This document shows, piece by piece, positions 784-41,054 of a DNA stretch of 41,543 nt. The notes beneath the pieces were generated by a model, which did no database searches, was not told the origin of the DNA, and saw only the letters and a program-made list of their open reading frames with translations. Every line of letters begins with the position of its first letter. The stretch's first letter is position 1. The DNA is taken from IMG/VR virus record IMGVR_UViG_2917413769_000002, positions 1 through 41,543 of that record; one strand, written 5' to 3'. The DNA is from a virus. Its lineage: Duplodnaviria > Heunggongvirae > Uroviricota > Caudoviricetes. The position numbers were made by a program, and so were the translations under genes.

Positions 784-1577
784 CTCCCAATCACTAAATA
801 GTTATAACGATAAGTAGTTCCTGTTCCTGCAGCTGAAACGTTCGCACCCCATGAGGTGAGGCTCATTGACGCAAAATTTACGCCGGTTGTTGAAGTGTTG
901 GTTGGTAACTGTACAGGGTCACTGATAACACCGAATGCTGCGTATACGGCCGACGTGAACGGGATCGGATAATTACCTGAATTCCCTGAAGTACCATTCC
1001 CTCCAAAATTACCCCACTGAATCATCAAACCGCCCGGAAGTTTCATGTAACCATTTGGTCCAATTGACGATGTGAAGCTGCTCATATCAGGGATCTGATT
1101 TGTGCCTGTTCCTACATCACGTTGCGCGGCGGTTTTTAGACCAAGGTAAGTAAGAACGCTGGGAATATCAGTCTTCCCAATGATATCCCGACCGACCTGA
1201 GTCAGGTCAGTTTGTGCAGCGGTATCAATACCGGTGAAATAAGGAAGCTTATTCGCTCCGGTCGCAAGGGCTGCAAGTGCCGTAAGTGTGGCATCCAGCG
1301 CCTGGAAATCCTTACCGAACGCGACGGTCATCTTGGTAATAAACCCGTTTAAGTCACCATCATCAAGCACATCTTGCCCACTTTTATTCGCGATATATTG
1401 CGCTAGAGAAGCTGCGATAAAACTTGCCTGCCGGATAGCTTTGTTCACCTGCGCACTGGATGCTTTGCCTGCCATGAACCCTGACAGTAAAGCCGGAAGC
1501 GCTTCCCACTCAGCCTGTGACATTACGTTTGCATTTGGATCAAGTGCAAATGCCTTAAAATCATTCTTGTTAGCCAT
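780..1577 (-). CDS. tail fibre protein
   Basis: C-terminal region contains the ...KLPYF...LTQVGRDI... block I recall as conserved in lambda Stf / Mu S-type fibres; last structural gene before Tfa; ATG at 1577 preferred over the TTG at 1595 in the ORF track. Confidence 0.7.
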   Translation of the reverse strand: MANKNDFKAFALDPNANVMSQAEWEALPALLSGFMAGKASSAQVNKAIRQASFIAASLAQYIANKSGQDVLDDGDLNGFITKMTVAFGKDFQALDATLTALAALATGANKLPYFTGIDTAAQTDLTQVGRDIIGKTDIPSVLTYLGLKTAAQRDVGTGTNQIPDMSSFTSSIGPNGYMKLPGGLMIQWGNFGGNGTSGNSGNYPIPFTSAVYAAFGVISDPVQLPTNTSTTGVNFASMSLTSWGANVSAAGTGTTYRYNYLVIGR

Positions 1578-1634
1578 CAGAGTAATACCCCCCAAGCGCC
1601 GGTATCGAAACCGCCGATATATTCGTTATCCATA

Positions 1635-2258
1635 TCAAACCCAAAAAAATTTCGTTCCTTCGGACGGTGTTTCTACCGAAGGTGTTTCAACGTCACCGGC
1701 CCATACGCCAGCTGCTTTAACGGTGAGATAGCCCTGTTTAATAGCGGCGATCAGTTCAAGAGACACATCTGAAATATCAGTCTCAGGGAATACCCAGACC
1801 GAAATCGTCATGTCCTGGTTATCGACGATTTGCATTTTCAGGCCAGAACCTGCTGTCGCAGCGTCAAGAATGGGTGGCAGCGAGTCGTTCCGCCCGTCCC
1901 AGTTGTTAATAGCGATTTTCGCTTTCAGAATGATGCGGTAGGTGTCATCGCTCAGCGACGTATAGCCCGAATCCGGGTCATATGGCCCTTGCCAGACACC
2001 TTGGTCATATCCCAGCCCATCGGTATCCCAGCTGAAATAAACTCCGGAAATAGGCTGGCTGACAATGCGGCTGCGCCCAATCCATAGCCCGAGCGTGTCG
2101 AGCTGCACACCGACAGCTGTATCGATATCGAAAGCAGAGACAAGGCCGCCCATGCTTTTGGAAATATCGATAAGCGGTCGGGTGCTCAGGTCAACGTGAT
2201 CGAAGAATTTGGGCTTGGTCGCGTGGTAATTGGTGATCCTGTCCGTATATTTGCTCAT
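1635..2258 (-). CDS. baseplate protein (P2 gpI / Mu gp48 position)
   Basis: 207-aa ORF directly downstream of the baseplate-J gene with coupled stop/start; synteny V-W-J-I-fibre-Tfa. Confidence 0.55.
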   Translation of the reverse strand: MSKYTDRITNYHATKPKFFDHVDLSTRPLIDISKSMGGLVSAFDIDTAVGVQLDTLGLWIGRSRIVSQPISGVYFSWDTDGLGYDQGVWQGPYDPDSGYTSLSDDTYRIILKAKIAINNWDGRNDSLPPILDAATAGSGLKMQIVDNQDMTISVWVFPETDISDVSLELIAAIKQGYLTVKAAGVWAGDVETPSVETPSEGTKFFWV

Positions 2259-3451
2259 GAGGTCACCGTGAGAGCGATATTATCGGGCTTACAGGACGCT
2301 GATTCGTTGTAGGCAATAACGATATTTGCCGCTGCCACCGAACCGGAAGACTTTCCGATCAACAGCTCGGTAATGTCGTAATAGCGAGCATTACCGCCGC
2401 TCACCACACCGAGGTTCGCCGGGGAGTAAATACGGCTCAACAGCACTGAATCACCGATCGTCAGCCCGTTGATGTAGTCCGCCACCGCCTGCTGAATCTG
2501 CGTGCCGATTTGCGATGTGTAACCGGTGAAGGCCTTCAGCGTGATGTGTCCGAAAACAGGCACGTCGGTTGAGCGAGAAAATCCGACATCATGCGGGTTA
2601 CCGTATTTGTCCGGTACAGAGACAACAGTTGATCCGTAGGGAGTCGTTCCCTGCCCCTTATTCCCCCTGATGGCCTGGGCTATTGCCGTTGCATCCCCAC
2701 CGTCGACAATGGCTGCAATGGAATGAGGCGGCAGTCCGTTGCTGTCAGTTGTGCCCTTGTCGTTTTCGTAGAGCTTGTGACGTGTCACACCAGCAACGTT
2801 GGCAAGAGCGCCATCAACAGCCTCAAACGGTGTAATCGACGGCAACGCAACGCTTTGCCCCTGCCTGACGCGCAGCTCTGCGTCAGTTTCTGCAGGTTCG
2901 CCCACTGTGGCCGCCGTCGGGTTCGTTACCGAAGTCCAGCCACGAGTCGGCGTGTTAATGGTGGTGATTGTCCCGGCCAGCGCCGCTACCGCACCGCTAT
3001 TCGCACATGTGGCCGTAACGATAACTGAACCTCCATCAATGACCACTGAAGGTGGAAGATTCCAGATCACGTTATTGTCGTCTTTAACCGAGCCGTTCGT
3101 GATGGTCGTCCCGGCGGTTCCGGTCAGCTGCAAATCTACGGTAGAGTTTGTCGCCCCATTACGGGCGATACCGTTAATTTTTACATTGCTGGTCAATCCG
3201 GCACCGTACCCGGTCGCAGGGGAAAAGCTGTTGTAGACACTGATGGCTGAGTTATTGGCATCGTGGATCGCCAGCGCTACCAGCGACACAACTTGTCCGT
3301 CCTTGCTGTCCGGGTCAATGTACACATCAGCGCCGTAAATCTGCTGAAAAAAGCTCGTCAGGGTATCGATTATCGTCTGAAAATCAGGTGCGCTAATACC
3401 CTCAGCGGTTACCGTTGCCGATAAGCCGAGTGTGTCCAAATTGAGGGCCAT
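2255..3451 (-). CDS. baseplate J-like protein
   Basis: 398-aa ORF; size and position typical of Baseplate_J family proteins (P2 gpJ / Mu gp47). Confidence 0.8.
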   Translation of the reverse strand: MALNLDTLGLSATVTAEGISAPDFQTIIDTLTSFFQQIYGADVYIDPDSKDGQVVSLVALAIHDANNSAISVYNSFSPATGYGAGLTSNVKINGIARNGATNSTVDLQLTGTAGTTITNGSVKDDNNVIWNLPPSVVIDGGSVIVTATCANSGAVAALAGTITTINTPTRGWTSVTNPTAATVGEPAETDAELRVRQGQSVALPSITPFEAVDGALANVAGVTRHKLYENDKGTTDSNGLPPHSIAAIVDGGDATAIAQAIRGNKGQGTTPYGSTVVSVPDKYGNPHDVGFSRSTDVPVFGHITLKAFTGYTSQIGTQIQQAVADYINGLTIGDSVLLSRIYSPANLGVVSGGNARYYDITELLIGKSSGSVAAANIVIAYNESASCKPDNIALTVTS

Positions 3452-3805
3452 TTATGCCTCGCTGGTTACTGTCGTTGTTCCGTAGATGGTGTCGACTGTG
3501 GTTGTGAACTCAACGCGCCGCGTCGTGGTGTTCACTGTCGTATTGAAAGAGAGAATGGATTTCACGCCACGCGTTTCGAGAATGCGCTGGCGTATCGCTA
3601 GGTTGTAGGTTTCCGGTTTTTGCTTACCGAGAACGGACTGGATCCACGGCGTGCCTGCCGTCGTATCGAGGAACCATTCCCCATACCATAATTCGAATCG
3701 CGTTTTTATCGCCTGCGCCACAGCCTCTGGTGAGTTAATCAGCCAGGTATCATCACCGCTGCCAAAGGTATAATCACCGTCGGCATCTTCACGCCGGTAT
3801 CGCAT
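3452..3805 (-). CDS. baseplate wedge protein (gpW / gp25-like)
   Basis: 117-aa ORF between spike and baseplate-J genes; size and synteny. Confidence 0.55.
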   Translation of the reverse strand: MRYRREDADGDYTFGSGDDTWLINSPEAVAQAIKTRFELWYGEWFLDTTAGTPWIQSVLGKQKPETYNLAIRQRILETRGVKSILSFNTTVNTTTRRVEFTTTVDTIYGTTTVTSEA

Positions 3806-3807
3806 GT

Positions 3808-4461
3808 TTAACCTCCCAGCGGCGCGGTATTGCTGCCGCCACTCTGTACGCCACCGTGCTTGTGTTTGTCGACGATAGAACCATCCACCAGCTGCAGGCG
3901 TCCGTCAGGCAGTATTTTCAGCCCATTCAGGTCGAACCCTCCCGGCGCGGTACCGGTTATCGCCCCGCTTGATGGGTTTAGGCTCAGCTTGGTCTCGCCA
4001 TCGTCACTACGCAACTCCACGCCGCTGGTGCTGATACCGCCGATTTTCTGCGCCTGCGACTGTGGTCCGACAATGCAGAACGCATCTGATAAATCATGCA
4101 CCCTATCGTCGACGGGCTCCTGCACACCGCCGCTTTGCCACCAGAAATCGATGCAGCGATCGGCAAATATCACCAGACATTCATCACCGGCCTTCACCGG
4201 GAACGTTAGCGTGCAACCGCCGCCGCGCGGAAACACCACCGGCACATCCACCAGCAGCGGATAATTATTCGTAATGCGCTTCCCGTCGTTATCGGTTTCA
4301 ACCGAACGGATAGCAGGCTGCACTACCGCAGTTACTGTTCCCGGGTCGAATGACTGAACGATTCCAGGCAACGCGACACGGATCTGGTTTTTTGTTGTTT
4401 CCCGCTCAGATTTGAGGGTTTCGGCAAGATCGCCGCTGCGGGTCTGGTCAGATACTGCCAT
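3808..4461 (-). CDS. baseplate spike / assembly protein V-like
   Basis: ATG at 4461 with GGAG 9 nt upstream; the longer ORF-track start at 4500 is a read-through of the upstream terminator hairpin; position upstream of W-J-I. Confidence 0.6.
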   Translation of the reverse strand: MAVSDQTRSGDLAETLKSERETTKNQIRVALPGIVQSFDPGTVTAVVQPAIRSVETDNDGKRITNNYPLLVDVPVVFPRGGGCTLTFPVKAGDECLVIFADRCIDFWWQSGGVQEPVDDRVHDLSDAFCIVGPQSQAQKIGGISTSGVELRSDDGETKLSLNPSSGAITGTAPGGFDLNGLKILPDGRLQLVDGSIVDKHKHGGVQSGGSNTAPLGG

Positions 4462-4478
4462 TTGGTAGACTCCAGAAA

Positions 4479-4504
4479 GCAAAAAACCTCGCCGAAGCAA
4501 GGTT
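4479..4504 (-). terminator. intrinsic terminator after the exported-protein gene pair
   Basis: minus-strand AACCTTGC-TTCG-GCGAGGTT followed by TTTTTT; 8-bp stem with one G-U pair and a UUCG tetraloop, read directly from the sequence. Confidence 0.7.
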
Positions 4505-4534
4505 TGAGAAGTGATTGTAAATATTTACAGGGAG

Positions 4535-5032
4535 TTACTTAAACATCCGATAAGTTACCTGTCCGTTAGGTTTGGTCAGGCTGCCATAGCACTCAATTGT
4601 ATGAATAACCTTAACATTAAAATCATTCAGCCCTGAGTAATGAAGAGTGAAGTAATACTGCTTTGGACTCACCGTGTCATCTATGCCACTTTCTGTTTGT
4701 TCCGTATCAAACGTCTCAGGCCTAGTTAGGGTATTTCGAGCAATATCCTTGCACGCGAAAATGACATTATTTTTAGCAAGAACATCGACAGGAAGCTGGT
4801 TCTTTTTAGCCTCATCAGCAAGTTCTTTTTCATAAATGGCCTTACGCTTAAGCCTTGCAGTTTCTTTTTCTTCTGCTGACCGGATGGCCGCCTTATCACT
4901 CTCACTTCTTGATTCAGCAGGCTTACTTCGCGCCTGACTCGCTTGATCTTCCTCTTGGCTCGTATCAAAAATCGCATACGCCGCAAATCCAATCACAGCC
5001 AATAACGCAATCCTTAGCATTTTTGTGAACAT
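4535..5032 (-). CDS. membrane-anchored hypothetical protein (moron)
   Basis: 165-aa ORF; N-terminal hydrophobic segment LRIALLAVIGFAAYAIF followed by a charged low-complexity linker and a C-terminal domain; locally AT-rich; followed by its own terminator. Confidence 0.5.
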   Translation of the reverse strand: MFTKMLRIALLAVIGFAAYAIFDTSQEEDQASQARSKPAESRSESDKAAIRSAEEKETARLKRKAIYEKELADEAKKNQLPVDVLAKNNVIFACKDIARNTLTRPETFDTEQTESGIDDTVSPKQYYFTLHYSGLNDFNVKVIHTIECYGSLTKPNGQVTYRMFK

Positions 5033-5037
5033 GGCCG

Positions 5038-5382
5038 TCAGTCCTTAATATTCTTACACGGAAACGAGCCAATTACTCTTGGAGCATCCATACTGTTTTG
5101 GAGAAGCTGGACATTCAGGAAAGATTTCCCGTTACGCTTCACAAATTCAAAGCCATAATTGTTGCCGTCACGCGCAGGCATCAGCCCCATATTCCACACA
5201 GCCTTAGATTCATCACCTTGAGCGCCGAGGTATTTTACTTTTTGACTTGTGACTAATTCGCCGTTAATACGCACAAGGCCTTCAGCATCCGATAATGTCA
5301 TCTTATAGCCGCCGCACTGGAAAGCTGCGAAAGAAGGTAACGAAACCAATAGCCCAACCAGCAACGCATATTTTCTCATCAT
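5038..5382 (-). CDS. secreted hypothetical protein with Sec signal peptide (moron)
   Basis: 114-aa ORF; N-terminus MMRKYALLVGLLVSLPSFAA looks like a cleavable signal peptide; two Cys in the mature part; sits inside the baseplate cluster. Confidence 0.5.
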   Translation of the reverse strand: MMRKYALLVGLLVSLPSFAAFQCGGYKMTLSDAEGLVRINGELVTSQKVKYLGAQGDESKAVWNMGLMPARDGNNYGFEFVKRNGKSFLNVQLLQNSMDAPRVIGSFPCKNIKD

Positions 5383-6449
5383 CCACCCCGGTTAAAAGCT
5401 TCCTGAGTTTTAATATCCACCGCACCACGCGCCTCGCACATCATATCCATGTACCACGCTTGGCCCCTTGTGTCGCCAGTGTACATAATCCCGCGTACAA
5501 TATAAACGCCATCCGTGGCGATGCTGGCTGTCATTTGCTTGGACACTGGCAGCGCTACGTTCGAATTGCCGTTTATGGTATCGTCGAAATAACGACCAGC
5601 CGTCATGGATATGTCGTTACCCGGTAGCGCTGTTTTGTATACCGACGCTTGATCCAGCTGAATGAGCCCGTTAACCCGGATGTTCGGGTTTATCAGCGCG
5701 CGAACGTTCACACCGTTACCGATGGTCTGCTGCGGCATGCCGATCAGCCCGGTGGCGCTGTTGAGCACAATCGCTTCGTGAACATACTCGTTATTCGCCA
5801 CCATCTGGCGCTGACCGTCCACGAACAGCCAGGTTGCACCACATTGTCCAGCCACGTTATCCATAAGATGCCGGGTCATACCAAACAGCACCCGGCCCCG
5901 GGGGAATACGGTGGCAGGCATTTCAGCCGTCAGGCCTTCAGTCGCACCTTTAGCCTCAAAATCTTTCATCAACGCGCGGTTCACATCTGCGACCGTATAA
6001 CCGGCTGCCAGCGTCTGCGAGGTTATGCTAGTGGCAAAAGCCAGATCCGTATCCGCTGCCTGAATCAGGACATAGGAATCAATGGGATTCTCCTTACCAG
6101 TCACCGAGTATCGAATTTCGCCGCTGTAAATCAGCCCATAGTTTCGCCCATCGCTCTGACCCACATCTGCCGCGTCAACCTCTCGCACCTTTCCGACGTC
6201 GCTGGCCGATACTTCCGGCGCTATGCCGTCGTAACCGGCGATCAGTCGCACCTTTGAAAACTCTTTACCGGTGATCCGATTTGAGGTATCGGCTGACAGG
6301 TTGTAAATCTTGAAGGTTCCCAGCCGGGACGCGCTGCTGATGTTGAACCAGTCGATCGTAAAGGTCACCTTAAAATCGCTAAGCTCAATGCCCTTCCCAT
6401 TCTCGTCCACGAGCTGCAGCTCGAAATGTCTCATCCAGTTCAGTGACAT
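5379..6449 (-). CDS. baseplate hub / tail protein D-like (Mu gp44, P2 gpD position)
   Basis: 356-aa ORF downstream of tape measure and small tail proteins; size and synteny. Confidence 0.55.
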   Translation of the reverse strand: MSLNWMRHFELQLVDENGKGIELSDFKVTFTIDWFNISSASRLGTFKIYNLSADTSNRITGKEFSKVRLIAGYDGIAPEVSASDVGKVREVDAADVGQSDGRNYGLIYSGEIRYSVTGKENPIDSYVLIQAADTDLAFATSITSQTLAAGYTVADVNRALMKDFEAKGATEGLTAEMPATVFPRGRVLFGMTRHLMDNVAGQCGATWLFVDGQRQMVANNEYVHEAIVLNSATGLIGMPQQTIGNGVNVRALINPNIRVNGLIQLDQASVYKTALPGNDISMTAGRYFDDTINGNSNVALPVSKQMTASIATDGVYIVRGIMYTGDTRGQAWYMDMMCEARGAVDIKTQEAFNRGG

Positions 6450-17639: not shown

Positions 17640-18960
17640 CTTCTATGTCCTCGTCAGTGATAGAACCACCGATGCCAATCACATCAGAAATGTTCCTGAG
17701 GTCGTTAAGCGCTGCTGCAGGTGGCATCCCAAGGTCACGAACGGCGGTACCGAGTGCGGTAACCACATTATTCGCCATCGTTGCGCGGTCCACGTCTGAC
17801 ATCTCCCAGAGCTTGTTAAACTCGAAAGTAAAATCGTCAGGCAGTGGTTCACCGAACAGAGAACGCCAGGAGATATCGAGCAGCCAACGGATATGTCGGC
17901 GTAAGCGTCTCTCCTGCAGCGAGTTAACCCGGCTGTAGTAGTTTTCCAGATCGCCGTCGCCGGTGTTGAAACCTGCAGGGGATTGCCCGAACAGACGGAC
18001 GAGAGGAATTCCCGTCGCGCCGGAAACCTGCTCAGCAAAGCGCAGAAGGACATCAGCGATACCCGCAAACGTATAGCTGTGGGTTTCGAACTTATCCTTA
18101 CCATCCATGATGGTCATGCCTTCGATGGTCTGGAACTGACGTATCATGTCCAGGTGCTTCATCAGCGCCTTTTCAAGGTCGCCTCCGGTAGCAAGAATCT
18201 TGCGCAGGTCTTCAATGCTGTAGGTTCGCAGGTGCGCTTTGTGGATCAACTGTGTGGTGCCGACCGTCGCAGTATCAAACGCCTCGATACGCTCGAAAAT
18301 ACGCTCCACAACAGACATCCCCCAGCCGTTTTCCGTCTGGGCCTGCTGGAAAGGAAGCGTATCGCCCTCCATGCGGATAACGCGGCTATGGTGAATCTTC
18401 CAGGGGGGAATCCCCTGCTGGTTCGTGATTACCTTGTAATATTTCGGTTTCCCGAAATCGGGACCGTAATCGGTAACGAGATCGTAATAACTCGGGTTAA
18501 CCATCCAGCGGTCAAGGCTCATTACGCCCTTAAACTGCCCCTCTTTGATGCGATCCAGTTTCAGCGGGGAGGACATATCCTGTCCTTCAAGCAGGACCAC
18601 CAGCACCGCTCCACCGTACAATCGTGACCATTTGAGGTTATCGTTAAGCCCATCCCATATAGCGAGCTCATCCCAGAAGGTTTCGAGCTTACCCTTTTGT
18701 CCAGGTTTCAGCTTTGAGCTGATGTTAATCCCCTTACGGGTCATATCATCGGCCATCGCATCCACACCGGCACCAACGAGGAACGATGAACGATACGCAA
18801 ACTCCAGCATCACCCTGTTACGGCTGATGTACCCGGGCATGTACATTCCGCCCGTCTGTATGTTTCTGGTGTCGCTGCCAAGTTTGGCCGTGAAATTGTT
18901 GTACCCGTCAGCTGTCGCAACGGGCTTTTGTGCGCCGTTCTGGCGTTTCTTACGGGACAT
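17497..18960 (-). CDS. portal protein
   Basis: ~487-aa ORF immediately downstream of the large terminase gene; ATG at 18960 abuts the terL stop; 3' end overlaps the head morphogenesis ORF by >100 nt. Confidence 0.75.
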   Translation of the reverse strand: MSRKKRQNGAQKPVATADGYNNFTAKLGSDTRNIQTGGMYMPGYISRNRVMLEFAYRSSFLVGAGVDAMADDMTRKGINISSKLKPGQKGKLETFWDELAIWDGLNDNLKWSRLYGGAVLVVLLEGQDMSSPLKLDRIKEGQFKGVMSLDRWMVNPSYYDLVTDYGPDFGKPKYYKVITNQQGIPPWKIHHSRVIRMEGDTLPFQQAQTENGWGMSVVERIFERIEAFDTATVGTTQLIHKAHLRTYSIEDLRKILATGGDLEKALMKHLDMIRQFQTIEGMTIMDGKDKFETHSYTFAGIADVLLRFAEQVSGATGIPLVRLFGQSPAGFNTGDGDLENYYSRVNSLQERRLRRHIRWLLDISWRSLFGEPLPDDFTFEFNKLWEMSDVDRATMANNVVTALGTAVRDLGMPPAAALNDLRNISDVIGIGGSITDEDIEDAKAQWEEDEPETIPPPPFGDPVSKKPVGDSKPDRADRRWYLRWFTG

Positions 18961-18961
18961 G

Positions 18962-20515
18962 TCACGCTCCGGCCAGTTTGGCCCAATTATCAAGAGAGGA
19001 ATCCATCGGCGCGTAGTTAATCATCACGGCGTCAGCGAGGTTCGGCGATTTTGTGCCTTCCGGCTGTTTATCCACGAGGATTTTACCCACGGCGTTTTTC
19101 GACCATGTAGGCTGTGAAAGCTCCATCAGCAGGCGGTCAATATTTTCTATCTCGCTGCTTATCGAAATGATTTCGTCGGGGTTGTAGTCCATCCCGTTCA
19201 GCGCGCGGAAGGTGTTACGAAACAGCTTACGAAGATGCCACCAGCTCTGTGCTTTCGCGTTCGCGAAGAAGTCTTTATTCAGGCGCGCCGCTTTACCGTT
19301 ATCACCAGGAACGGCTTCATCTTCCGGATCGAATACGCTACCGCTACCACGGAAAGGCGTAGCTGTGATTGTTCCCCGGCCTTCAGCCTGCCTGAGCTCG
19401 TTTATCACGCGAGCATCGCCACGCGCACCAGCACCCAGACCGTCCTCATCGAAACGGAACTCATCCAGACCGTAATCGTCACAGTACCCAAACGATTTAA
19501 CGACAGAGGCGTAGATGTCGCTGCCAATGCCAGACCATTCGTGAACGTTCTGCAGAAGGAAGCCATAGCGGCAAGAAAAACCGTTTTTGTCTTTCCCTTC
19601 GTCTGCAATATCCATTGCGCCGAGGCGCTGGCCGCTGGGCTGAATACCCAGTTTGATATGTGCGTCGACGGCAGCCTGTACCCATTCAGAAGGAATGAGA
19701 ATCCCCTCTGTGGATGCACTGTAGTTCAGGTCCAGTTCCTGAGCAACGATAATCGGATCATCAATTTTCAGACATTCGTTGCGGTACCACTCATCATCCT
19801 TGCGCGGGTCGCTGCGCCAGTGGAACGTAAACACCGGGATATTTCCGCTGTGACGCTTACGGGCAAACGGGTTATTCATGCCGTTGACGGATGAGAGGTC
19901 TATACGGCAGCGGGTCGTCTGAGAGAGCGCAGCATCGATGAGTAATGGCCGTTTGAGGAATGCCGACTCATCCACGAAATAAAGCGTGGTACGGTCACCA
20001 CGGCCAATGTTATCGCCAGCCTCTCCCTTAATGACCGCGCCCGTTTCCGGGAACTCCACGCGCATGTAAGGAGCATGTTTTTTGTCACTCCATGAACCGC
20101 GAAACTCTACCGGCAGCAGCTCGACAAACTTACGCGCTTTCCAGAACAGTGCTTTCGGGTCGCCGGTACTGTCGACATATTCCTCTTTACGGGAACCGAA
20201 CCCGATCACCATTTCTTTGTTGAACAGGCAAAGCGAACAGGCCAGACCGATAGAGGTCCAGCTCAGCCCCATTTCGCGGCTTTTTTCTGTCAGTCCATGC
20301 TCAAGACTGGCGCGCCTGTCCATGATCCAGTTAATCCATTCCTCCTGGCGGGGAAACAGCAAAAACGGGATGGTCGCAGGCAGGCCATAATCGAGGTTGC
20401 GCGGGTCTGTCGTCATGCCCCAGTCGATGATGAACTGGGCCGGGTTAGTGCGGTAAAACTCACGGAGTGCCGGAAGCATTTCAGGCGCTTTCCTGATCCG
20501 CTCCAGCCTCTCCAT
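18962..20515 (-). CDS. terminase large subunit
   Basis: ATPase-like N-terminal region and nuclease-like C-terminal region; start at ATG 20515 preferred because the ORF-track TTG start (20593) lies inside the conserved intergenic element. Confidence 0.8.
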
Positions 20516-20577
20516 TCTCCACTCAAACACGGCGGTATAGTCCGGTTTTCGGAAGTCAAAGGGGAACGGGATCGGCA

Positions 20578-20632
20578 CAGAAAAATTCCTCAAAAACGCC
20601 CCAATTTAACATAATGGTCGTTACCCGCACTG
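20578..20632 (-). repeat. conserved ~55-bp intergenic element, copy 2 (upstream of terL)
   Basis: minus strand GTGCGGGTAACGACCATTATGTTAAAT...ATTTTTC; see copy 1. Confidence 0.6.
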
Positions 20633-20776
20633 GCGCAACAGCACCCATCACGCAAACGGCGTGAAGCCTCTGTTTTGAAGAGAAAAGTGGTCAAATCGGG
20701 ATGAATAAAACGTGCATAAAACGGGTCAAAAAGTGCATAGCGTTTTTACGGTTCGAAACGCCTGTTTTTGCAATTT

Positions 20777-21380
20777 TCAGCCCATGAATTTTTTGTAGAT
20801 ATCTGCGACCTCATGCGGGGACAGGTTCGCCGCGTCGGCTTTGGCTGCCTCGTCCATATTGGTGAACGATTCGAAAATTTTCGGCGCTCCAAGCTCCATA
20901 AGCAGGGTTTCCGGAACCTTTATTCCCTCAGCCTCAAGCAGCTGCGCCGCCTGCAGCGCGGTGTATTTACCATCTACCTTGTGCTTCATCACCTCACGAA
21001 GCACATCACGCTGACGGTCCTCTTCCCCCATAAACACTGCGGCCGAGTCCAAGAGCTTTGGCAAACACCGCAACATCATTGTGCGTTGGTAAAACATCCT
21101 CGACGGTTGTTTTCAGTCCATCAGGGGATTTGGTGACAATCTTTCGCTTCCGAACGTCCAGGCTTTTACCTGCAACGTTGTTAATCTTTTCCATCAGAAC
21201 TTCGCGAGCCTCGGTAAAGGCACGATTAAAGTCGGCGTGTTCCTTGCGCCAGTTGCGGATAGTCGCCTCGTCAATTTCCAGTCGCTGGGCAACCATACGG
21301 TTTGAGATCTTGTTACGGGCCAGAGCCATATCAATAACGATACCGACGTAGGCCTTCTTAAAGCTATTTTTACGGGCCAT
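20777..21380 (-). CDS. terminase small subunit, interrupted by an apparent frameshift (two ORFs 21006-21380 and 20777-21097)
   Basis: N-terminal ORF has HTH-like start MARKNSFKKAY...; C-terminal ORF continues in another frame with 92-nt overlap; G5 run at 21025-21029 (minus strand) is the candidate shift site. Confidence 0.6.
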
Positions 21381-21428
21381 ACGCTTACCTGAAATCGGGT
21401 GCTGTTTATATTTTGTTCAAAATTATTT

Positions 21429-21529
21429 TTCCGCATTTTGCGTGCGGAATAATTCTGAGAAAAAATCTGCTCCGGGGCCGCAAGCCTGCTGGGTTTGAGT
21501 GCGGAATTAAAAACGTCAAAAAATGCGGA
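21429..21529. repeat. cluster of TGCGGA(A/G) repeats upstream of terS, downstream of the recombinase gene
   Basis: TTCCGCA (21429-21435) and TGCGGAA (21443-21449) form a 7-bp inverted repeat with 7-nt spacer; further direct copies at 21500-21506 and 21524-21529. Confidence 0.6.
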
Positions 21530-21626
21530 GTTATCAATTTTCCGTAAAAACTGCGATTTTATGCCCGGAGGCCGCGCAGAATGGGGAGATAGTGGATCGC
21601 CCTAATATTTCCACTATGTGGATAAC

Positions 21627-22631
21627 TCAGTCCAAATCCATCTCCACCACTTCACCGAACAGGTGACCGTAAACGTCCATTGTGGTTTTGATGTTCGAAT
21701 GCCCAATAAGTCGGGAAACCTTCAGAATATCGACGCCTTTGTTTGCCAGGCGAGATACAGCAAAGTGGCGAAGATGATGGAATCGCTTAATGCCATAGTC
21801 GTTCAGGGTTCTGACGAGAACGCCCTGAGTGCCGTAACTGGTAGCAAGGCATGCGCCGGTAAACTGATTGCAGATAAGAGGCTCAGAGGAACCCAGCTTA
21901 TTTTTATCCAGCAACGCGAAAAGCTCACGCGGCATCCGTACCCGGCGCTCCACTCCTCTTTTCAGCCCCTCATGTATAACGCCGTCAACAACATGCCCCC
22001 GGATGTCGATCCAGTCGGCTGACACGTCGTTATAAGTAACCGCCAGAGCCTCACCGATACGCAGGCCACAAATCCCGAGCCAGCACGCGATACGCTCACG
22101 AACTGGCGCGTTATTCAGTAGCTCCCTGACCGATGATGATGGCGGTATGGTGATGGGTCGACGCTTCCGGCGCGCTGGACGGTCAACAGGGTTAAAAGTG
22201 ATGAGCCGCTTTTCCACCAGCAGGAAGAAAGCCGAACGAATCCAGCGATGGCAGCCGGTGCGAACCGAATCAACGATATCGCGATGGCTGATATGGAGAA
22301 TATTTTTTTCCAGTATCGGCCCGTCTACAGCGAGAAGATCGTGACGGCATTTCGTATATGACGACAGCCGTATGATATTTTTTTCCAGCTTGCCGGCCTG
22401 ATACCCCAGATAAAACAGAATTAACTTTCGGAAAGTCCAGGAATGGTCTATTCCGGTCCAGCTGGCGGTTCGACAATCCAGCTCAATATTCTGTTTTTGC
22501 CAGAAAAGATGTGCGGCATCATCAATATTCTTAAAGATGCGGCGGCGCCCATGACCGGATTTTTCATCCTTCCAGTGGACGTAATATTTTGATTGTCCAT
22601 TGGCATCAGTGGATTCTTTTATCGAAGCCAT
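21627..22631 (-). CDS. tyrosine site-specific recombinase (integrase family) with arm-binding-like N-terminal domain
   Basis: C-terminal catalytic signature R (LRIGEALA), H-x-x-R (HHLRH) and Tyr (…TTMDVYGHL); N-terminus GQSKYYVHWKDEKSGHGRRRIF resembles AP2-like integrase arm-binding domains; ATG 22631 with GAGGA upstream. Confidence 0.75.
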   Translation of the reverse strand: MASIKESTDANGQSKYYVHWKDEKSGHGRRRIFKNIDDAAHLFWQKQNIELDCRTASWTGIDHSWTFRKLILFYLGYQAGKLEKNIIRLSSYTKCRHDLLAVDGPILEKNILHISHRDIVDSVRTGCHRWIRSAFFLLVEKRLITFNPVDRPARRKRRPITIPPSSSVRELLNNAPVRERIACWLGICGLRIGEALAVTYNDVSADWIDIRGHVVDGVIHEGLKRGVERRVRMPRELFALLDKNKLGSSEPLICNQFTGACLATSYGTQGVLVRTLNDYGIKRFHHLRHFAVSRLANKGVDILKVSRLIGHSNIKTTMDVYGHLFGEVVEMDLD

Positions 22632-22695
22632 ACTGAACAATCCTCACTCAAAAAACATTATCAAAGCCACTCGGTGAATGGCTTTTGTAATGAAT

Positions 22696-22878
22696 TTATC
22701 GGACCAGCGTTACTTTCGTTTTTGTAAACCGGCGCACCAGTCGAGCGGCTTCACGCTGGAGCTCGCCTTCGATCTGAGGAGTAAGTGGCTTACGTGCATA
22801 TTTCCGGCTTATTTCTTCAATCACCTGGTTTATTTGCTCATTACTCGGCGGGATTACTTCGACATTTAAGCGAGCCAT
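22696..22878 (-). CDS. small hypothetical protein (possible recombination directionality factor)
   Basis: 60-aa basic ORF translationally coupled (TGATG) to the upstream membrane protein gene and lying just upstream of the recombinase. Confidence 0.4.
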   Translation of the reverse strand: MARLNVEVIPPSNEQINQVIEEISRKYARKPLTPQIEGELQREAARLVRRFTKTKVTLVR

Positions 22879-23306
22879 CAAGCCACCTCTTTTTCGGTTA
22901 GTTTCTCGACCTTATCACGAGCAAGCGAACAGCACAGGCGCACAAACAATGACGCTATTACGTAGGCTACCGCTGTAAACACCCACCCACCGTATGCAAG
23001 CATGGAAGCCCCCAGCACCAGGCAGAACCATCCCCATACTCTCGCTATTGCGTTCTTGCGCTTAGCAAAGCGTTCAAGGTATTCAATACCCTCCCGCCGG
23101 GACTTATCATCCTTTGAATACTCGACACCAAACGTAATAATGAGAGCTAACAAACCAACTACCGCGCCAAGCAATACGATCACCCAGTAGGCGGCGGCAA
23201 CAACTCTCAATAAAGAACCGGCACCTGTAGTAACAGCAAAAAGCAAAGCGGCGAGCAGCGCGTAAAAAGTTATTTTTGTTGCTGCATCAGTGAAAAATTT
23301 CTTCAT
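22878..23306 (-). CDS. integral membrane protein, ~4 predicted TM helices
   Basis: ATG 23306 with AAGGA upstream; four hydrophobic segments read from the translation; follows the Rz terminator. Confidence 0.5.
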   Translation of the reverse strand: MKKFFTDAATKITFYALLAALLFAVTTGAGSLLRVVAAAYWVIVLLGAVVGLLALIITFGVEYSKDDKSRREGIEYLERFAKRKNAIARVWGWFCLVLGASMLAYGGWVFTAVAYVIASLFVRLCCSLARDKVEKLTEKEVA

Positions 23307-23427
23307 TGCGTTTCCTTTAAGGTGTGAGCCTGTCGTACAGGAGCAACGCCCGAGAGAGGTCGCCACCTTTAACGATGCTCCTCAGGCTCACTACTGAAAG
23401 ACTCTCTGAAATGCGCGTACGAGGCGC

Positions 23428-23455
23428 AGAAAAAAAGCCCCGCTATTGCGAGGCT
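23428..23455 (-). terminator. intrinsic terminator at end of lysis cassette
   Basis: minus-strand AGCCTCGC-AATA-GCGGGGCT followed by TTTTTTT; overlaps the Rz stop codon. Confidence 0.65.
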
Positions 23456-25477: not shown

Positions 25478-26321
25478 GGAGCCAGGCCTCGAATTTATCG
25501 GAGAAATTTGAAATCCGCTTGTCGCAGTGGTGATCCCATGCTTCACAGCGGCAGTAATTGTCGGGAATTGCCCAGCCAACACGAGAAAGGTCCATCGCCG
25601 GATCGGTTACGATTTCCGGGGCGTTGTGGCCGCCCCGCCCACCAGCAACAACATAGACAGGCGTTCTGTAGGCGATGGCAGCAGGAAGCGCCCAGCCAAC
25701 CGGCGAAACCACTACGGCAGCGTGTTCAATCAGGCGCATCAGCGATTTAAAATTGAGCTGGCCGGAGTGCAGCCGCAGATCCGCTTCGGGAAGTTCGCCG
25801 ACCGCCCACTCTTCCCCCTCCTGCAGGTCAGCCACGCTGATCACACAGAAATGTTTTCGCAGTAACCGGGAGGCCTGCAGCAGATAATCAGGATCAGGGT
25901 TGCGAGAGTCGCTACGCCACTCAGATCGCACTGTTGCCGGGCGGATCACCGCAATCGGCTTTTGGTGGGTAAATTCCGCCGGGCCGAAGGAAGGCAGATC
26001 CAGCGCTGCTGGCTCTACGCCGAACTGCTGGCGCATAGCGTCAAAAATTGAGCCGCGCCGCAGGTGCTGTGGCCCGTAGAAAATGCGCTTTGTCTGGCGC
26101 ATATCCGGTGGCTGCTGGAAAGCGGCTTGCGTCCGGTATTCGTTCTTGCGTTGCGTTCGGAGCGTTGTAAAGCTACGAACGGGCAGAACGGGTAAATCTT
26201 CGTAGATTTCAGGCCAGGCGGTTTTGATGTAACTCCCCGGCGGTAACTGCTTTACGAAAGCCCGCTGGTAGATACTGTCACCCATGCCCAGCATGCCATC
26301 GATAAAAAGAGGAACGTTCAA
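25383..26321 (-). CDS. GT9-family glycosyltransferase-like protein (heptosyltransferase fold)
   Basis: N-terminal ...LFIDGMLGMGDSIYQ... and C-terminal ...VVSPVGWALPAAIAYRTPVYVVAGG... resemble WaaC/WaaF-type heptosyltransferases as recalled; TTG start coupled to upstream stop. Confidence 0.6.
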   Translation of the reverse strand: MNVPLFIDGMLGMGDSIYQRAFVKQLPPGSYIKTAWPEIYEDLPVLPVRSFTTLRTQRKNEYRTQAAFQQPPDMRQTKRIFYGPQHLRRGSIFDAMRQQFGVEPAALDLPSFGPAEFTHQKPIAVIRPATVRSEWRSDSRNPDPDYLLQASRLLRKHFCVISVADLQEGEEWAVGELPEADLRLHSGQLNFKSLMRLIEHAAVVVSPVGWALPAAIAYRTPVYVVAGGRGGHNAPEIVTDPAMDLSRVGWAIPDNYCRCEAWDHHCDKRISNFSDKFEAWLHEVVLSGTGKRAGIFTGAGDRTLPRSGITPV

Positions 26322-27290: not shown

Positions 27291-27711
27291 CTAAAAAATG
27301 CGGACCGCACTAGCACTTTTTTGATTATTTTGAATGCTCACTACGGCGTCCATTTCCAGGCGAACATCCAGCATCGACAGGCAGCCTTCAATGAATCCCT
27401 CGGCAAGCAGCATCTCTATGCGTATCTGCTTTTCGCTTTTCTTCCTGCGCTTCGCCATCTGCCGTTTTGAATACCGGAGAATATAATGCCCGACCAGCAA
27501 GTGATAATCGTATGGGCATTTTTTTTATCAGGCGTGCCATGCAGCCCTCGATAATCAGCCCATCGTCGTCGGTACACATGATCCGCGTTTTGCTGGTTTG
27601 CGGAAGCAGCCCCTTAAAACCAGCAGCGATGGAAGAATAATCAATATTGCATGAATCGCTTGCCGCCCACGCGCCCCACATATCAAGAACCTTTTGCATA
27701 TCACGCATCAT
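27291..27711 (-). CDS. late antiterminator Q (QuuD-type), interrupted by an apparent frameshift (ORFs 27388-27711 and 27291-27500)
   Basis: N-terminal ORF MMRDMQKVLDMWGAWAA...IDYSSIAAGFKGLLP...CTDDDGL is Q-like as recalled; C-terminal continuation ...SMLDVRLEMD... in another frame; T8 run at 27519-27526 is the most likely shift site. Confidence 0.6.
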
Positions 27712-30420: not shown

Positions 30421-30620
30421 CCAATGGAGCTGCCTTCTGGAAAAGGCCTATTCCCATCCCTCTCCGATCTCCCCCCTTACCCCCCTCTTACCTCTCCCTT
30501 ATTCATGTACTAGATAGCTAGTACAATCAGGCGTAAAAAAAGTAAGTGGGTGGTCCCAGCTTCATCAGCAGCTGACGCCTTTAAGTCAGACTGCAACCAG
30601 GCACCTTTAAGCCCGGTATC
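30421..30620. promoter_or_regulatory. candidate origin / early-promoter region with repeats
   Basis: ~50-nt polypyrimidine tract with CTTAC-type repeats (30445-30500), perfect inverted repeat TGTACTAG-ATAG-CTAGTACA (~30488-30510), two CCTTTAAG copies. Confidence 0.35.
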
Positions 30621-31345: not shown

Positions 31346-31919
31346 TATGGACACCACAAACACGATCAACGAACTGCTAAAAATGAAGGGCTGGACTCAG
31401 CGAGAACTGGCTCGCAGGCTCAATGTCAGCGCCCAATCAGTTCAATACTGGACAACGGGGAAAACATTCCCAAGAGGTAAGCGACTTGCGCGGCTTTCGG
31501 AGATCAGCGGTCTCCCGCAATCATGGTTTCTTGGCGAGAAACAAAGCACGACTTTCCCTGCGGCCGCTGCACCAGATGAGCAGACTGATAGCGTTACTTT
31601 TAAGGTTCTTGATGTTGAATTCAGTTGTGGTGATGGGACGAGTGTAAAGGGGGACTTTGTTGATGTTGTCAGGTCAATAGAACTTGATCCAGAGTACGCC
31701 CGCCAGCTCGTAGGTAATAGACCATTCAAAAATATCGAGATAGGTAATGCTCGTGGGGACAGCATGTGTCCCACTATAGCCCCTGGAGACCTACTATTTC
31801 TCGATAAAACAGTTACATACTTTGATGGTGACGGGATCTACGCTTTCTGTTTTGATGGGGAATGTTATGTAAAAACGCCTGCAAAAGGTTGGCACAAAAA
31901 TAGTGGTCTTATCCGATAA
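31346..31919 (+). CDS. cI: CI-like repressor (HTH-XRE + S24 LexA-like peptidase domain), 3' end frameshifted; intact frame would end at 32025
   Basis: SD GGGAGAGG before ATG 31346; HTH ...WTQRELARRLNVSAQSVQYW...; S24 motif GDSMCPTI; removing one A from the A5 run at 31871-31875 restores ...YVKRLQKVGTKIVVLSDNANY... including the canonical VKRL. Confidence 0.8.
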
Positions 31920-32038
31920 TGCAAACTATCAAGCATGGAATATAGAAAAAGAAGCATTAAACATGCTCTACATCCAGTCAAAAGTAATATCCTCTGTTCC
32001 TTTCAACATCAATAGATTTGGATAATTAATTGATTTAT

Positions 32039-37015: not shown

Positions 37016-37090
37016 GTCCCCTTAGTTAAATGGATATAACGAGCCCCTCCTAAGGGCTAATTGCAGGTTCGATTCCTGCAGGGGACACCA
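37016..37090 (+). tRNA. argW: tRNA-Arg (anticodon CCU), argW-like
   Basis: 75 nt: 7-bp acceptor stem GTCCCCT/AGGGGAC, T-arm GCAGG-TTCGATT-CCTGC, anticodon loop CTCCTAA, 3' CCA encoded. Confidence 0.9.
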
Positions 37091-37250: not shown

Positions 37251-37802
37251 ATGCTCACCGTTAAGCAGATTGAAGCAGCAAAGCCGAAAGAAAAACCATA
37301 CCGCCTTCTCGATGGTAATGGCCTGTACCTTTATGTTCCTGTATCCGGGAAAAAGGTATGGCAGCTTCGCTACAAGATTGACGGTAAGGAGAAAATCCTG
37401 ACCGTCGGAAAATATCCGCTTATGACTTTGCAAGAGGCAAGGGATAAGGCATGGACCGCGAGGAAAGATATCTCGGTTGGCATAGATCCGGTAAAGGCGA
37501 AAAAGGCTTCGTATAACAACAATTCCTTTAGTGCGATTTACAAGGAATGGTACGAGCATAAGAGGCAAGTATGGTCAGTCGGCTATGCGACTGAACTTGC
37601 CAAAATGTTTGACGACGACATTTTACCTATCATCGGCGGTCTTGAAATTCAGGATATTGAGCCGATGCAACTTCTTGAAGTAATCCGCAGATTTGAAGAT
37701 CGCGGTGCAATGGAGCGAGCCAACCTTACTATATCTCGAATAGCACAAAGCCTTGCAATCCAGTGCAAAGCTTTGTGTGTCTCAGTTTTGTCTTACGCTT
37801 AA
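37251..37802 (+). pseudogene. truncated P4-type (IntS-like) integrase, N-terminal ~180 aa only
   Basis: starts 161 nt downstream of the tRNA 3' end in the same orientation; N-terminal KPYRLLDGNGLYLYV...GKK.W block; ends where AT-rich DNA begins. Confidence 0.7.
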
Positions 37803-37822: not shown

Positions 37823-38849
37823 TTATTTGATGCATTTAATTTTAGATTTTCTTTTCAAAATTAAGCCGCATGGAATCTCAATATATTTATAGCTTAAGTA
37901 TGAAGACAGAAGAATAAGTACTATAATTGGTACAACCATCAATAATTTATCTAACATATAGATATCACATAGCTTATTTATTATACATATAATGATCACA
38001 TGCGAAAGATATGTCGAGTATGACCAATCTCCAAGTTTAGATGCAATTCTTGATATAGTGCTATTGCCAATATTGTTTTCAAGACATAAAGCGGAAACAA
38101 TTAAAGCAGCGCAAGGGATTCCAATTTGGAGAAGTCTTTTTGATTCATTGCTAAAAAATATACTTATCAGTGATAATACGGATATTGTTAGTGCAGTTTT
38201 AACACCGATATTTCTGAATAGCCCATTATTATAACATATAGCTATTACCCCCCCCCATAACAAACTCAAACAACAGTTCATCATTATAGAAAAGAAATAC
38301 AGTAGACTCATTATTGCCAAGCCATGAAAACAAATTCATTACAACAAGAGGAATTAGAATACAGCAAATTTTTTTGTTGTTTTCAGGGAATAACAGAGAA
38401 ATAAATACGCACGTATAAAATAGCATTTCAAAATTAAGAGTCCACCCAACCGTTAGGGTTGGAATATACCAACCTATCTGTTGATTCATTACCGGAATAA
38501 AAGCAAGGCTTTTTAATACATTATTTAATCCAATCTCAGCAAACGGAATAACTCCGTGAAAATTGTATGATATTACCACTACCAGCAATGTGTAGAACCA
38601 ATATGCAGGAATAATTCTTACCATCCTATTGAGAGCAAATGACGTAGGTGTAATATTATTTTTCGATATTGACTTATAAATAATAAAGCCACTTATGATA
38701 AAAAACATATCGACACCATTGCCAGCCTTAAGTGCAATAGTGTGCATCAATTTGGATGATGCAGACCATTGAAACATGACTTGAGAAATATGATGATAAA
38801 CAACTGCCCAAGCAGCAAGTGCTCTTAAGATTTGTATTGACTTAATCAC
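37823..38849 (-). pseudogene. acyltransferase-3 family membrane protein (O-antigen acetylase-like), split by a frameshift at a G9 tract
   Basis: ORFs 38229-38849 and 37823-38320 overlap at a C9 run (38247-38255, plus strand); G8 would fuse them into a ~350-aa acyltransferase_3-like protein; strongly AT-rich region. Confidence 0.65.
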
Positions 38850-39478: not shown

Positions 39479-39733
39479 TTATATACAATAGTTGACCCTG
39501 CCAATAGTTAACCCTGCAGCGTCATCTGTACAGCCAATTAGCGGCATTCCCGTGCCAAATTTACCGCCATTTATGACAATATGATTACCTGGGCCATGTA
39601 TGTAGAAGTTCCATGAATATGATTTCCCCCACGAAAGCATTGGATTATTAAAAGTTACGTAATTATTATCTTTAACAGAAACAATCTGATCCCCCCCATC
39701 TTTTGGTATGCATATATACCCAATAAACATCAA
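39479..39733 (-). CDS. hypothetical protein, possibly a gene remnant
   Basis: 84-aa ORF in AT-rich DNA between the acyltransferase gene and the IS630-family remnant. Confidence 0.25.
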   Translation of the reverse strand: MMFIGYICIPKDGGDQIVSVKDNNYVTFNNPMLSWGKSYSWNFYIHGPGNHIVINGGKFGTGMPLIGCTDDAAGLTIGRVNYCI

Positions 39734-39763
39734 GATGTGGGTGTGAACACCCGAAAGTGATCA

Positions 39764-40700
39764 TTAATTCTGGATGTCAGCCGCTATATCCGGCAGCGTC
39801 TGGTTAAAAAAGACAGATATTGCGTCCCTGAACACTCGCGTACTGCTGAAGTAGCGATTATTCCGCGCATGTTCGTTCATTAATTTCCACATTCTTTCTA
39901 TCGGATTCAGGTTTGGACTGTAAGGGGGAAGGTAATGCAGCCTGATATTTACCACTTCCGCCCAGTCTTTCACTAACTGTGAACGGTGATAACCTGCTCC
40001 ATCCAGAATAACGTGGATTTTCTGGTTATAATCAGGATAAACCTTTCGTATATCATTGAAAAAACGGTATACATTATATTCATTAATGGTTTTATATTCG
40101 CAGATTAGCGGTGACGTCAGTGCTTTCAGATTTAGCGCCCCATGATATTCAGGCGTGTGCGGCTGCCTGTTGTTTTTACTGCTTTTTTCTGGCCTTTGCG
40201 TATCCAGCCATAGCTGATTTTAGTGGCCTGAGTCGGATGGACTCCATCAATAAAAAGAATCGGTTCATCACCCACAGTTGTTTTCAGTTCCACATAATAT
40301 TCAATGAATTGCCTTTGTTTCTCTTCACAGAATTTATGGGGAACGCCTGACGGTTTTTGTAGGTGAAACCATTACAATGCAGCCACTTATTCATCCCCAG
40401 AATGCTGAAAATGATGTTCCATGTCCGGGTGACAAACGCAATAACATCGCGGGTACGGTGAAATAAATTATCGGATAACTGACTGATAAAAAGGGCCATT
40501 TGTTCAGCTCTGAGTTTGCGGCCTGAGCCGCCGTTTTCGGCCTTCAGTTTCCCTTTATTCAGGAATTCACTGATATGGTGATCAATCGTTGTCTAATGTA
40601 GGCGTAAAGCCTGAGCAATCATGGCAGAACTCCAGCCTTCGGAGGCCAGAAGAATAGCTTAAATACGAGCTCTGACTCGCCCGTCACGGCTGGAATCATG
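39764..40700 (-). mobile_element. IS630-family transposase gene, frameshifted
   Basis: C-terminal ORF has the DDE region ...HVILDGAGYH... and the family signature YLPPYSPNLNPIE; upstream parts in other frames (…YGWIRKG…NIMG / ALNL…); two frame breaks at short homopolymers (~40138-40141 and ~40354-40358); element ends not defined. Confidence 0.65.
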
Positions 40701-41054
40701 AAGGCGTTCAAGTTCAGCTTTTTGTTGCTCAGTGATGAATATTTTCATGTTGGACAGCATGATCTCCGATTGCTGAAAAATCAATCAGTTCCAATGATCA
40801 CGGGTATAAAATCGTTAATTGTATTATCGTTACCTGACTGCAAATGCATTCCTACCCCCATTCCAATATCAGTTGCAGATGGTAACTCATAGGCACAACT
40901 GGTCATGGTGAGGTCATTACAGTTATTGATATAGTAGGCCGTTCTGACAGTACCATCACTTGTACAACAAACCATGTTCGAATACTGACCGTTCTCTATC
41001 CGGAAAGCTCCTGGCAAGACTTAAGCATCGTTTACCCGTCCAGAGTTGAAGTGG

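Follow-up and report, generated by a model that had tools for sequence, protein, structure and literature searches.

Assemblies built from Ion Torrent reads carry homopolymer indels that cause frameshifts, the affected runs having a mean length of 5.5, and both insertions and deletions are documented (PMC12046094). Real frameshifts are found in the pseudogenes of defective prophages, where phage morphogenesis genes carry 1-nt indels. HTH-type small terminase subunits (TerS) of phages, represented by Sf6 gp1 (PF20901), P22 gp3 (PF16677), the phBC6A51-type proteins (PF13022) and the SPP1-like G1P, are encoded directly upstream of the large-subunit gene terL on the same strand.

The window analysed here, a 41,543-nucleotide stretch of DNA that includes a prophage, contains a terS-like gene that appears as two overlapping ORFs. 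This apparent split is almost certainly a homopolymer over-call artefact and represents neither a pseudogene nor a recoding site. Its likeness to the Ion Torrent error systems lies in single-base errors of run length that become more frequent in longer runs, in the lack of accompanying substitutions, in the failure of an independent assembly to reproduce the errors, and in the documented use of this platform for the genome concerned, that of Escherichia sp. E1130. The difference, not a material one, is of direction: all seven errors found here are +1, whereas insertions occur together with deletions in the published set. With real frameshift pseudogenes the locus shares a 1-nt indel in a phage morphogenesis gene, but here the indel is missing from the other assembly of the same strain, and the terS of the window is therefore not a genomic pseudogene.

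Anatomy of the interrupted reading frame

The initial annotation described a small terminase gene divided between two ORFs in different frames with a 92-nt overlap, and this description is exact according to both the ORF list of the window and the minus-strand sequence (Table 1). At the junction, the coding strand reads AGT GTT TAT GGG GGA AGA GGA CCG TCA GCG TGA and includes the G5 run. Gene callers place the start of the second ORF at the ATG at 21031, giving a product of 84 aa (TGC25294.1). The proposal that a one-base change in this run would fuse the ORFs also holds: deletion of one G yields a continuous 200-aa ORF, MARKNS...SVYGEEDRQRDVLREVMKHK...YKKFMG. The corrected sequence is identical to the protein of the second E1130 assembly described below, and the 83 codons downstream of the break stay open.

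In the proposed mechanism, the Ion Torrent-based PDIL01 assembly of E1130 would have called G4 as G5, and the extra G would shift the frame after codon 117, producing the two spurious overlapping ORFs. We infer that flow-based mis-estimation of homopolymer length, carried into the consensus, is the cause. The extra base is absent from the second same-strain assembly, from a raw-read assembly and from all aligned relatives.

Table 1. Coordinates of the features of the window discussed in the text; for run lengths, the value in the window is followed by that in the second assembly
Feature	Position	Strand	Remarks
True single gene, terS-like	20777..21380	-	200 aa; 603 nt in reality, 604 nt in the window (one spurious G)
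Artefactual ORF1	21006..21380	-	124 aa; residues 1-117 of the real protein plus out-of-frame tail GRGPSA and stop
Artefactual ORF2	20777..21097	-	106 aa; C-terminal 83 residues of the real protein, other frame
Overlap of ORF1 and ORF2	21006..21097	-	92 nt; frames differ
G5 run with spurious extra base	21025..21029	-	true length G4
terL, terminase large subunit	18962..20578	-	538 aa; PHROG phrog_2, E=8e-28; 198 nt downstream of the terS-like gene
Over-call A7 vs A6	1643..1649	+	baseplate wedge (DUF2612) gene
Over-call C5 vs C4	21025..21029	+	terS-like gene (G run on the coding strand)
Over-call A7 vs A6	23430..23436	+	intergenic
Over-call T8 vs T7	27519..27526	+	antiterminator Q gene
Over-call A7 vs A6	30535..30541	+	intergenic
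Over-call A5 vs A4	31871..31875	+	S24-peptidase repressor gene
Over-call C9 vs C8	38248..38256	+	Acyl_transf_3 gene (G9 on the coding strand)
Baseplate wedge (DUF2612/Phage_Wedge1)	1635..2258	-	207 aa in the window, 226 aa intact; coding-strand T7 vs T6
Antiterminator Q	27291..27711	-	107 aa in the window, 138 aa intact; coding-strand A8 vs A7
S24-peptidase (CI/LexA-like) repressor	31347..32025	+	190 aa in the window, 225 aa intact; last ~50 residues lost
Acyl_transf_3 (O-acetyltransferase-like)	37823..38849	-	AT-rich; split by G9; 341 aa intact
Tyrosine recombinase	21627..22631	-	334 aa; Pfam Phage_integrase, E=2e-15
TGCGGAA/TTCCGCA copies	21425..21540		several, in the 246-nt spacer between the recombinase and terS-like genes
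tRNA-Arg(CCT)	37016..37090		adjoins the prophage
intS-like integrase fragment	37251..37802		truncated; just outside the prophage
IS630-like ISEc40 copy	39712..40808		degenerate; 95% identity to an intact E. coli copy

Run lengths in two assemblies of strain E1130

Over 20 kb, the window is identical to contig PDIL01000012.1 from assembly GCA_004745435.1 of Escherichia sp. E1130. For this genome (PDIL00000000, SRX3260321), the published description gives single-end Ion Torrent sequencing at 50x, with reads 35-400 nt long, and names MIRA and SPAdes as the assemblers (PMC6639607). The baseplate J protein, looked up by exact match, leads to a second assembly, GCA_005781065.1, and its contig VATL01000008.1. 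The proteins TLI72909.1 and TLI72889.1 of this contig are also labelled Escherichia sp. E1130, so that GCA_005781065.1 represents the same strain, assembled independently. The literature was searched for the accession VATL00000000, with no result; in principle, the two assemblies could derive from different subcultures.

Three stretches of VATL01000008.1, covering window positions 1454-5951 and 18673-40295 (4,498 + 21,623 nt, 26.1 kb), were compared with the window. The comparison yields no mismatches and seven one-base gaps, all seven within homopolymers and each with the window longer by one base. At the terS-like run, the second assembly (L037/L046) has G4 and an intact 200-aa ORF, TLI72909.1. 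Additionally, the Logan raw-read assembly of SRR6148301 (L042), a run that from its sequence appears to belong to strain E1130, aligns to window positions 18777-23380 with no mismatches and the same single gap, again with G4. Together with the Ion Torrent source, these two assemblies bear out the assembly homopolymer error that the initial annotation had offered as one of its two options.

Longer runs are more often discrepant. None of 937 3-mers, 251 4-mers and 27 6-mers differs, while discrepancies affect 2 of 95 5-mers, 3 of 10 7-mers and the only 8-mer and 9-mer. Within the 26 kb checked, over-calls in GCA_004745435.1 have a density of roughly one per 3.7 kb. Because there are no substitutions and seven length-dependent over-calls, two of them in non-coding DNA, the differences read as a technical signature rather than as divergence between subcultures.

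Besides the terS-like gene, four genes that the second assembly shows intact have a frameshift in the window, namely those for antiterminator Q, the S24-peptidase repressor, the wedge protein of the baseplate and the acyltransferase. For example, the corrected C-terminus of the wedge protein matches its E. coli homologues, and the ATGA overlap with the next gene is restored. Intact Q matches Pfam Phage_antitermQ (E=3e-49), and the gene is skipped by the gene calls of the source assembly. The acyltransferase tract is G8, with the gene intact, in three assemblies, the second one of E1130 and two from sister strains; this G8 tract could be a true phase-variation site. A scan of the window alone for ORF pairs that a homopolymer change could fuse is very noisy and flags overlapping neighbours, and it pointed to the G9 acyltransferase site. 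A lysogen with a truly broken repressor, Q and terS and yet zero substitutions is not credible.

The packaging gene of the prophage is intact and the split is no real feature; it therefore carries little biological weight. The artefact has already entered public databases as the 'hypothetical proteins' TGC25295.1/WP_135494741.1 (124 aa) and TGC25294.1/WP_135494738.1 (84 aa), each of which has its own UniRef100 entry. Apparent frameshifts, pseudogenes and split genes in GCA_004745435.1 need to be checked against GCA_005781065.1 before interpretation, and the 15 sister Ion Torrent assemblies of the same study probably call for like caution.

Related loci and alternative explanations

At every related locus examined, the gene is single. 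A megablast search of complete E. coli genomes shows prophages of ~81% identity that carry the region as a single 603-nt gene, and a scan of one genome per species shows uninterrupted 200-aa copies with 95-96% identity in Citrobacter braakii, Enterobacter soli and others. Thirty further loci were obtained by exact look-ups of the window's terL, the adjacent recombinase and a lysis-region protein. Each of these has one called gene upstream of terL, 200 aa long except for one of 185 aa that is called from a later start. The extra base occurs in none of the 27 related loci aligned, which have G4 (15 loci), GGTG (one locus, L005) or AGCG (11 loci). Specifically, the aligned run reads TAT-GGGGG-AAGAGG in the window, TAT-GGGG-AAGAGG in close relatives and TAT-AGCG-AGGAAG in more distant ones, and the sole 1-nt gap against the aligned relatives lies in or adjoins the G run, where the initial annotation had suspected the break. 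In a protein search, all but a few of the best 120 protein clusters are single genes of ~200 aa, most of them 200 aa exactly and with full coverage, and the truncated 124-aa and 84-aa products are confined to one assembly, the source of the window. Megablast of phage records did not find a close relative of the gene, and counts of synonymous versus non-synonymous changes in the downstream half include too few differences to inform.

A real +1G slippage mutation could have inactivated terS in the prophage or in the subculture behind the first assembly, leaving a packaging-defective, decaying prophage. G runs are natural slippage sites, and prophage genes do undergo true frameshifts, as in the non-homopolymer 1-nt deletion in the portal gene of locus L014 and the split terL of L027. 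The packaging-blocking mutation that the initial annotation had set beside the assembly error is nevertheless effectively excluded by G4 in both the second same-strain assembly and the Logan assembly. The mutation is also opposed by the company it would keep, which is seven +1 homopolymer calls without a substitution in 26 kb, two of them intergenic and one that would destroy the repressor. The sequencing platform, the open frame beyond the break and the identity of the corrected product to the protein of the second assembly speak against it as well, and we consider it very unlikely. Less likely still is a mixed E1130 population in which slippage on the G run would have made G5 real in a packaging-defective subpopulation that happened to be sampled by the first library, with ordinary Ion Torrent errors accounting for the other six over-calls.

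Recoding on the G run, by programmed +1 ribosomal frameshifting or by transcriptional slippage, would give the full-length protein out of both frames together with a shorter N-terminal product. In the window sequence, GGG-GGA is indeed followed by the 0-frame codons GGA and AGA. A P-site tRNA-Gly on GGG-GGA could re-pair in the +1 frame, and GGA and AGA are rare codons in enterobacteria. However, programmed frameshifts are kept among relatives, whereas the G5 arrangement is unique to a single error-prone assembly: the two-frame layout is present in none of the 27 aligned loci, nor in the called genes of the other related loci, and the other assembly of the same strain is in frame. This reading was rejected on the lack of conservation in any relative, and its probability is negligible. 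The same must be said of two truly separate genes, one encoding an HTH protein and the other a small protein consisting of the C-terminal domain. The break does coincide with a linker of low confidence (pLDDT <50 at residues 113-117) that joins two predicted domains, and a second-frame ATG at 21031 lies right at the junction, but sequence inspection reveals no Shine-Dalgarno before this ATG. Moreover, an HMMER search with alignment shows both parts joined in a single chain in homologues with identities as low as about 25%, a single gene is present at every related locus examined, and the other assembly of the strain has a single ORF; the distant single-chain homologues and the second assembly led to the rejection of separate genes. 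The location of the spurious frameshift in the linker makes both halves resemble tidy ORFs.

Besides L014 and L027, other assemblies of related prophages show frame breaks of their own. In E. coli DX6 (L001), the terS-like gene begins with a run shortened by a deletion, A6 for A7, and three neighbouring genes are annotated there as 'frameshifted'. In the Logan contig L047, TTT is reduced to TT at window position 26209.

The terS-like protein and its prophage surroundings

The small terminase subunit is the best functional assignment for the corrected protein, a plausible rather than proven one that rests on synteny with terL and on weak profile and fold similarity. The order of terS-like gene, terL, portal and Mu F-like head protein is kept in all related loci, and scaffold, decoration and major capsid genes also follow in the window; the terL of the E. 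coli relatives is named 'TerL protein' in RefSeq. Like the genes of the HTH-type TerS proteins, the terS-like gene immediately precedes terL in the same orientation, and its product has an N-terminal HTH and gives weak matches to several terS profiles; the product differs from those proteins in falling below the curated cut-offs and in that no solved terS matches it by sequence. HTH models match its N-terminus, and the PHROG terS matches are restricted to the HTH region (phrog_309, E=1e-6; phrog_7344, E=1e-4; phrog_2538, E=3e-4), while the best PHROG match, phrog_26539 (E=1e-25), is a family without an assigned function. Pfam Sf6_terminase reaches 18.6 bits (E=0.002), short of its cut-off of 27, and GP3_package and Phage_terminase match some relatives only, with E of about 1e-3. 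For this protein, no match to Pfam attains the curated threshold of the model, and NCBIfam gives no match at all.

An exhaustive HMMER search defines a small family of 40 representative clusters. Their alignment has three conserved elements, which are the HTH region (W44, R45, F51), a PTHND motif at residues 98-102 and a C-terminal module at ~119-164 with the near-invariant residues G137, A144, E149, E151, P156, L159 and E162. This module is duplicated in some relatives. To our knowledge, such a conserved C-terminal helical module is not a described feature of terS proteins. The AlphaFold monomer model (mean pLDDT 70) consists of an HTH bundle (10-73), a β-hairpin (77-96) and a helix (100-109), followed by the low-confidence linker (113-117), helices spanning 119-164, a disordered stretch and a terminal helix (188-199). 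In Foldseek comparisons, no PDB entry reaches E<0.01, the small-terminase structures 3zqq and 2ao9 scoring E=0.13 and E=0.34. The best fold matches in BFVD are annotated as terminase small subunits, with E=7.5e-5 to 8e-4 and low TM-scores of 0.24-0.34. Searches for solved terS by sequence (phmmer, and profile against PDB sequences) gave only generic HTH matches and 2ao9 at E=0.09.

The tyrosine recombinase gene lies between the lysis genes and the terS-like gene. All related prophages fetched keep it at this position, and a separate Arm-domain integrase lies beside tRNA-Arg; possible roles of the recombinase include dimer resolution and a packaging-linked function. In the spacer between this gene and the terS-like gene, the repeats comprise an inverted pair at 21425-21453, direct copies TTTG(C/A)GTGCGGAAT at 21437 and 21494, and AAAATGCGGAG at 21520. 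TGCGG repeats are retained in the same spacer of more divergent relatives, and the repeats may serve as protein-binding sites, whether of the recombinase, of a regulator or of the terS-like protein. On the other side of the terS-like gene, the 198 nt that separate it from terL are interrupted in L010 (3520-6000) and in L021 (4855-7005) by an insertion with genes for a DUF6904 protein and for a 467-aa HTH_23/28/32 transposase-like protein; this spacer therefore tolerates insertions.

At the tRNA-Arg(CCT) side, the sister-strain assemblies (L043/L044) align only from 37015 on, with yfdC (Form_Nir_trans) directly before this point. The sister strains are therefore prophage-free there, and about 37015 marks one prophage end. 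The truncated intS-like integrase fragment and, beyond tRNA-Arg(CCT), the Acyl_transf_3 gene lie just outside the prophage. Farther out, the degenerate ISEc40 copy has a 5-nt deletion at 39781 and two runs shortened by one base, C4 versus C5 at 40138-40141 and T5 versus T6 at 40354-40358. These two homopolymer differences were considered as further errors and rejected, since a sister-strain assembly shares both. Across the ISEc40 stretch the sister-strain assembly aligns to the window without an indel, so that the indels of this copy probably represent real decay.
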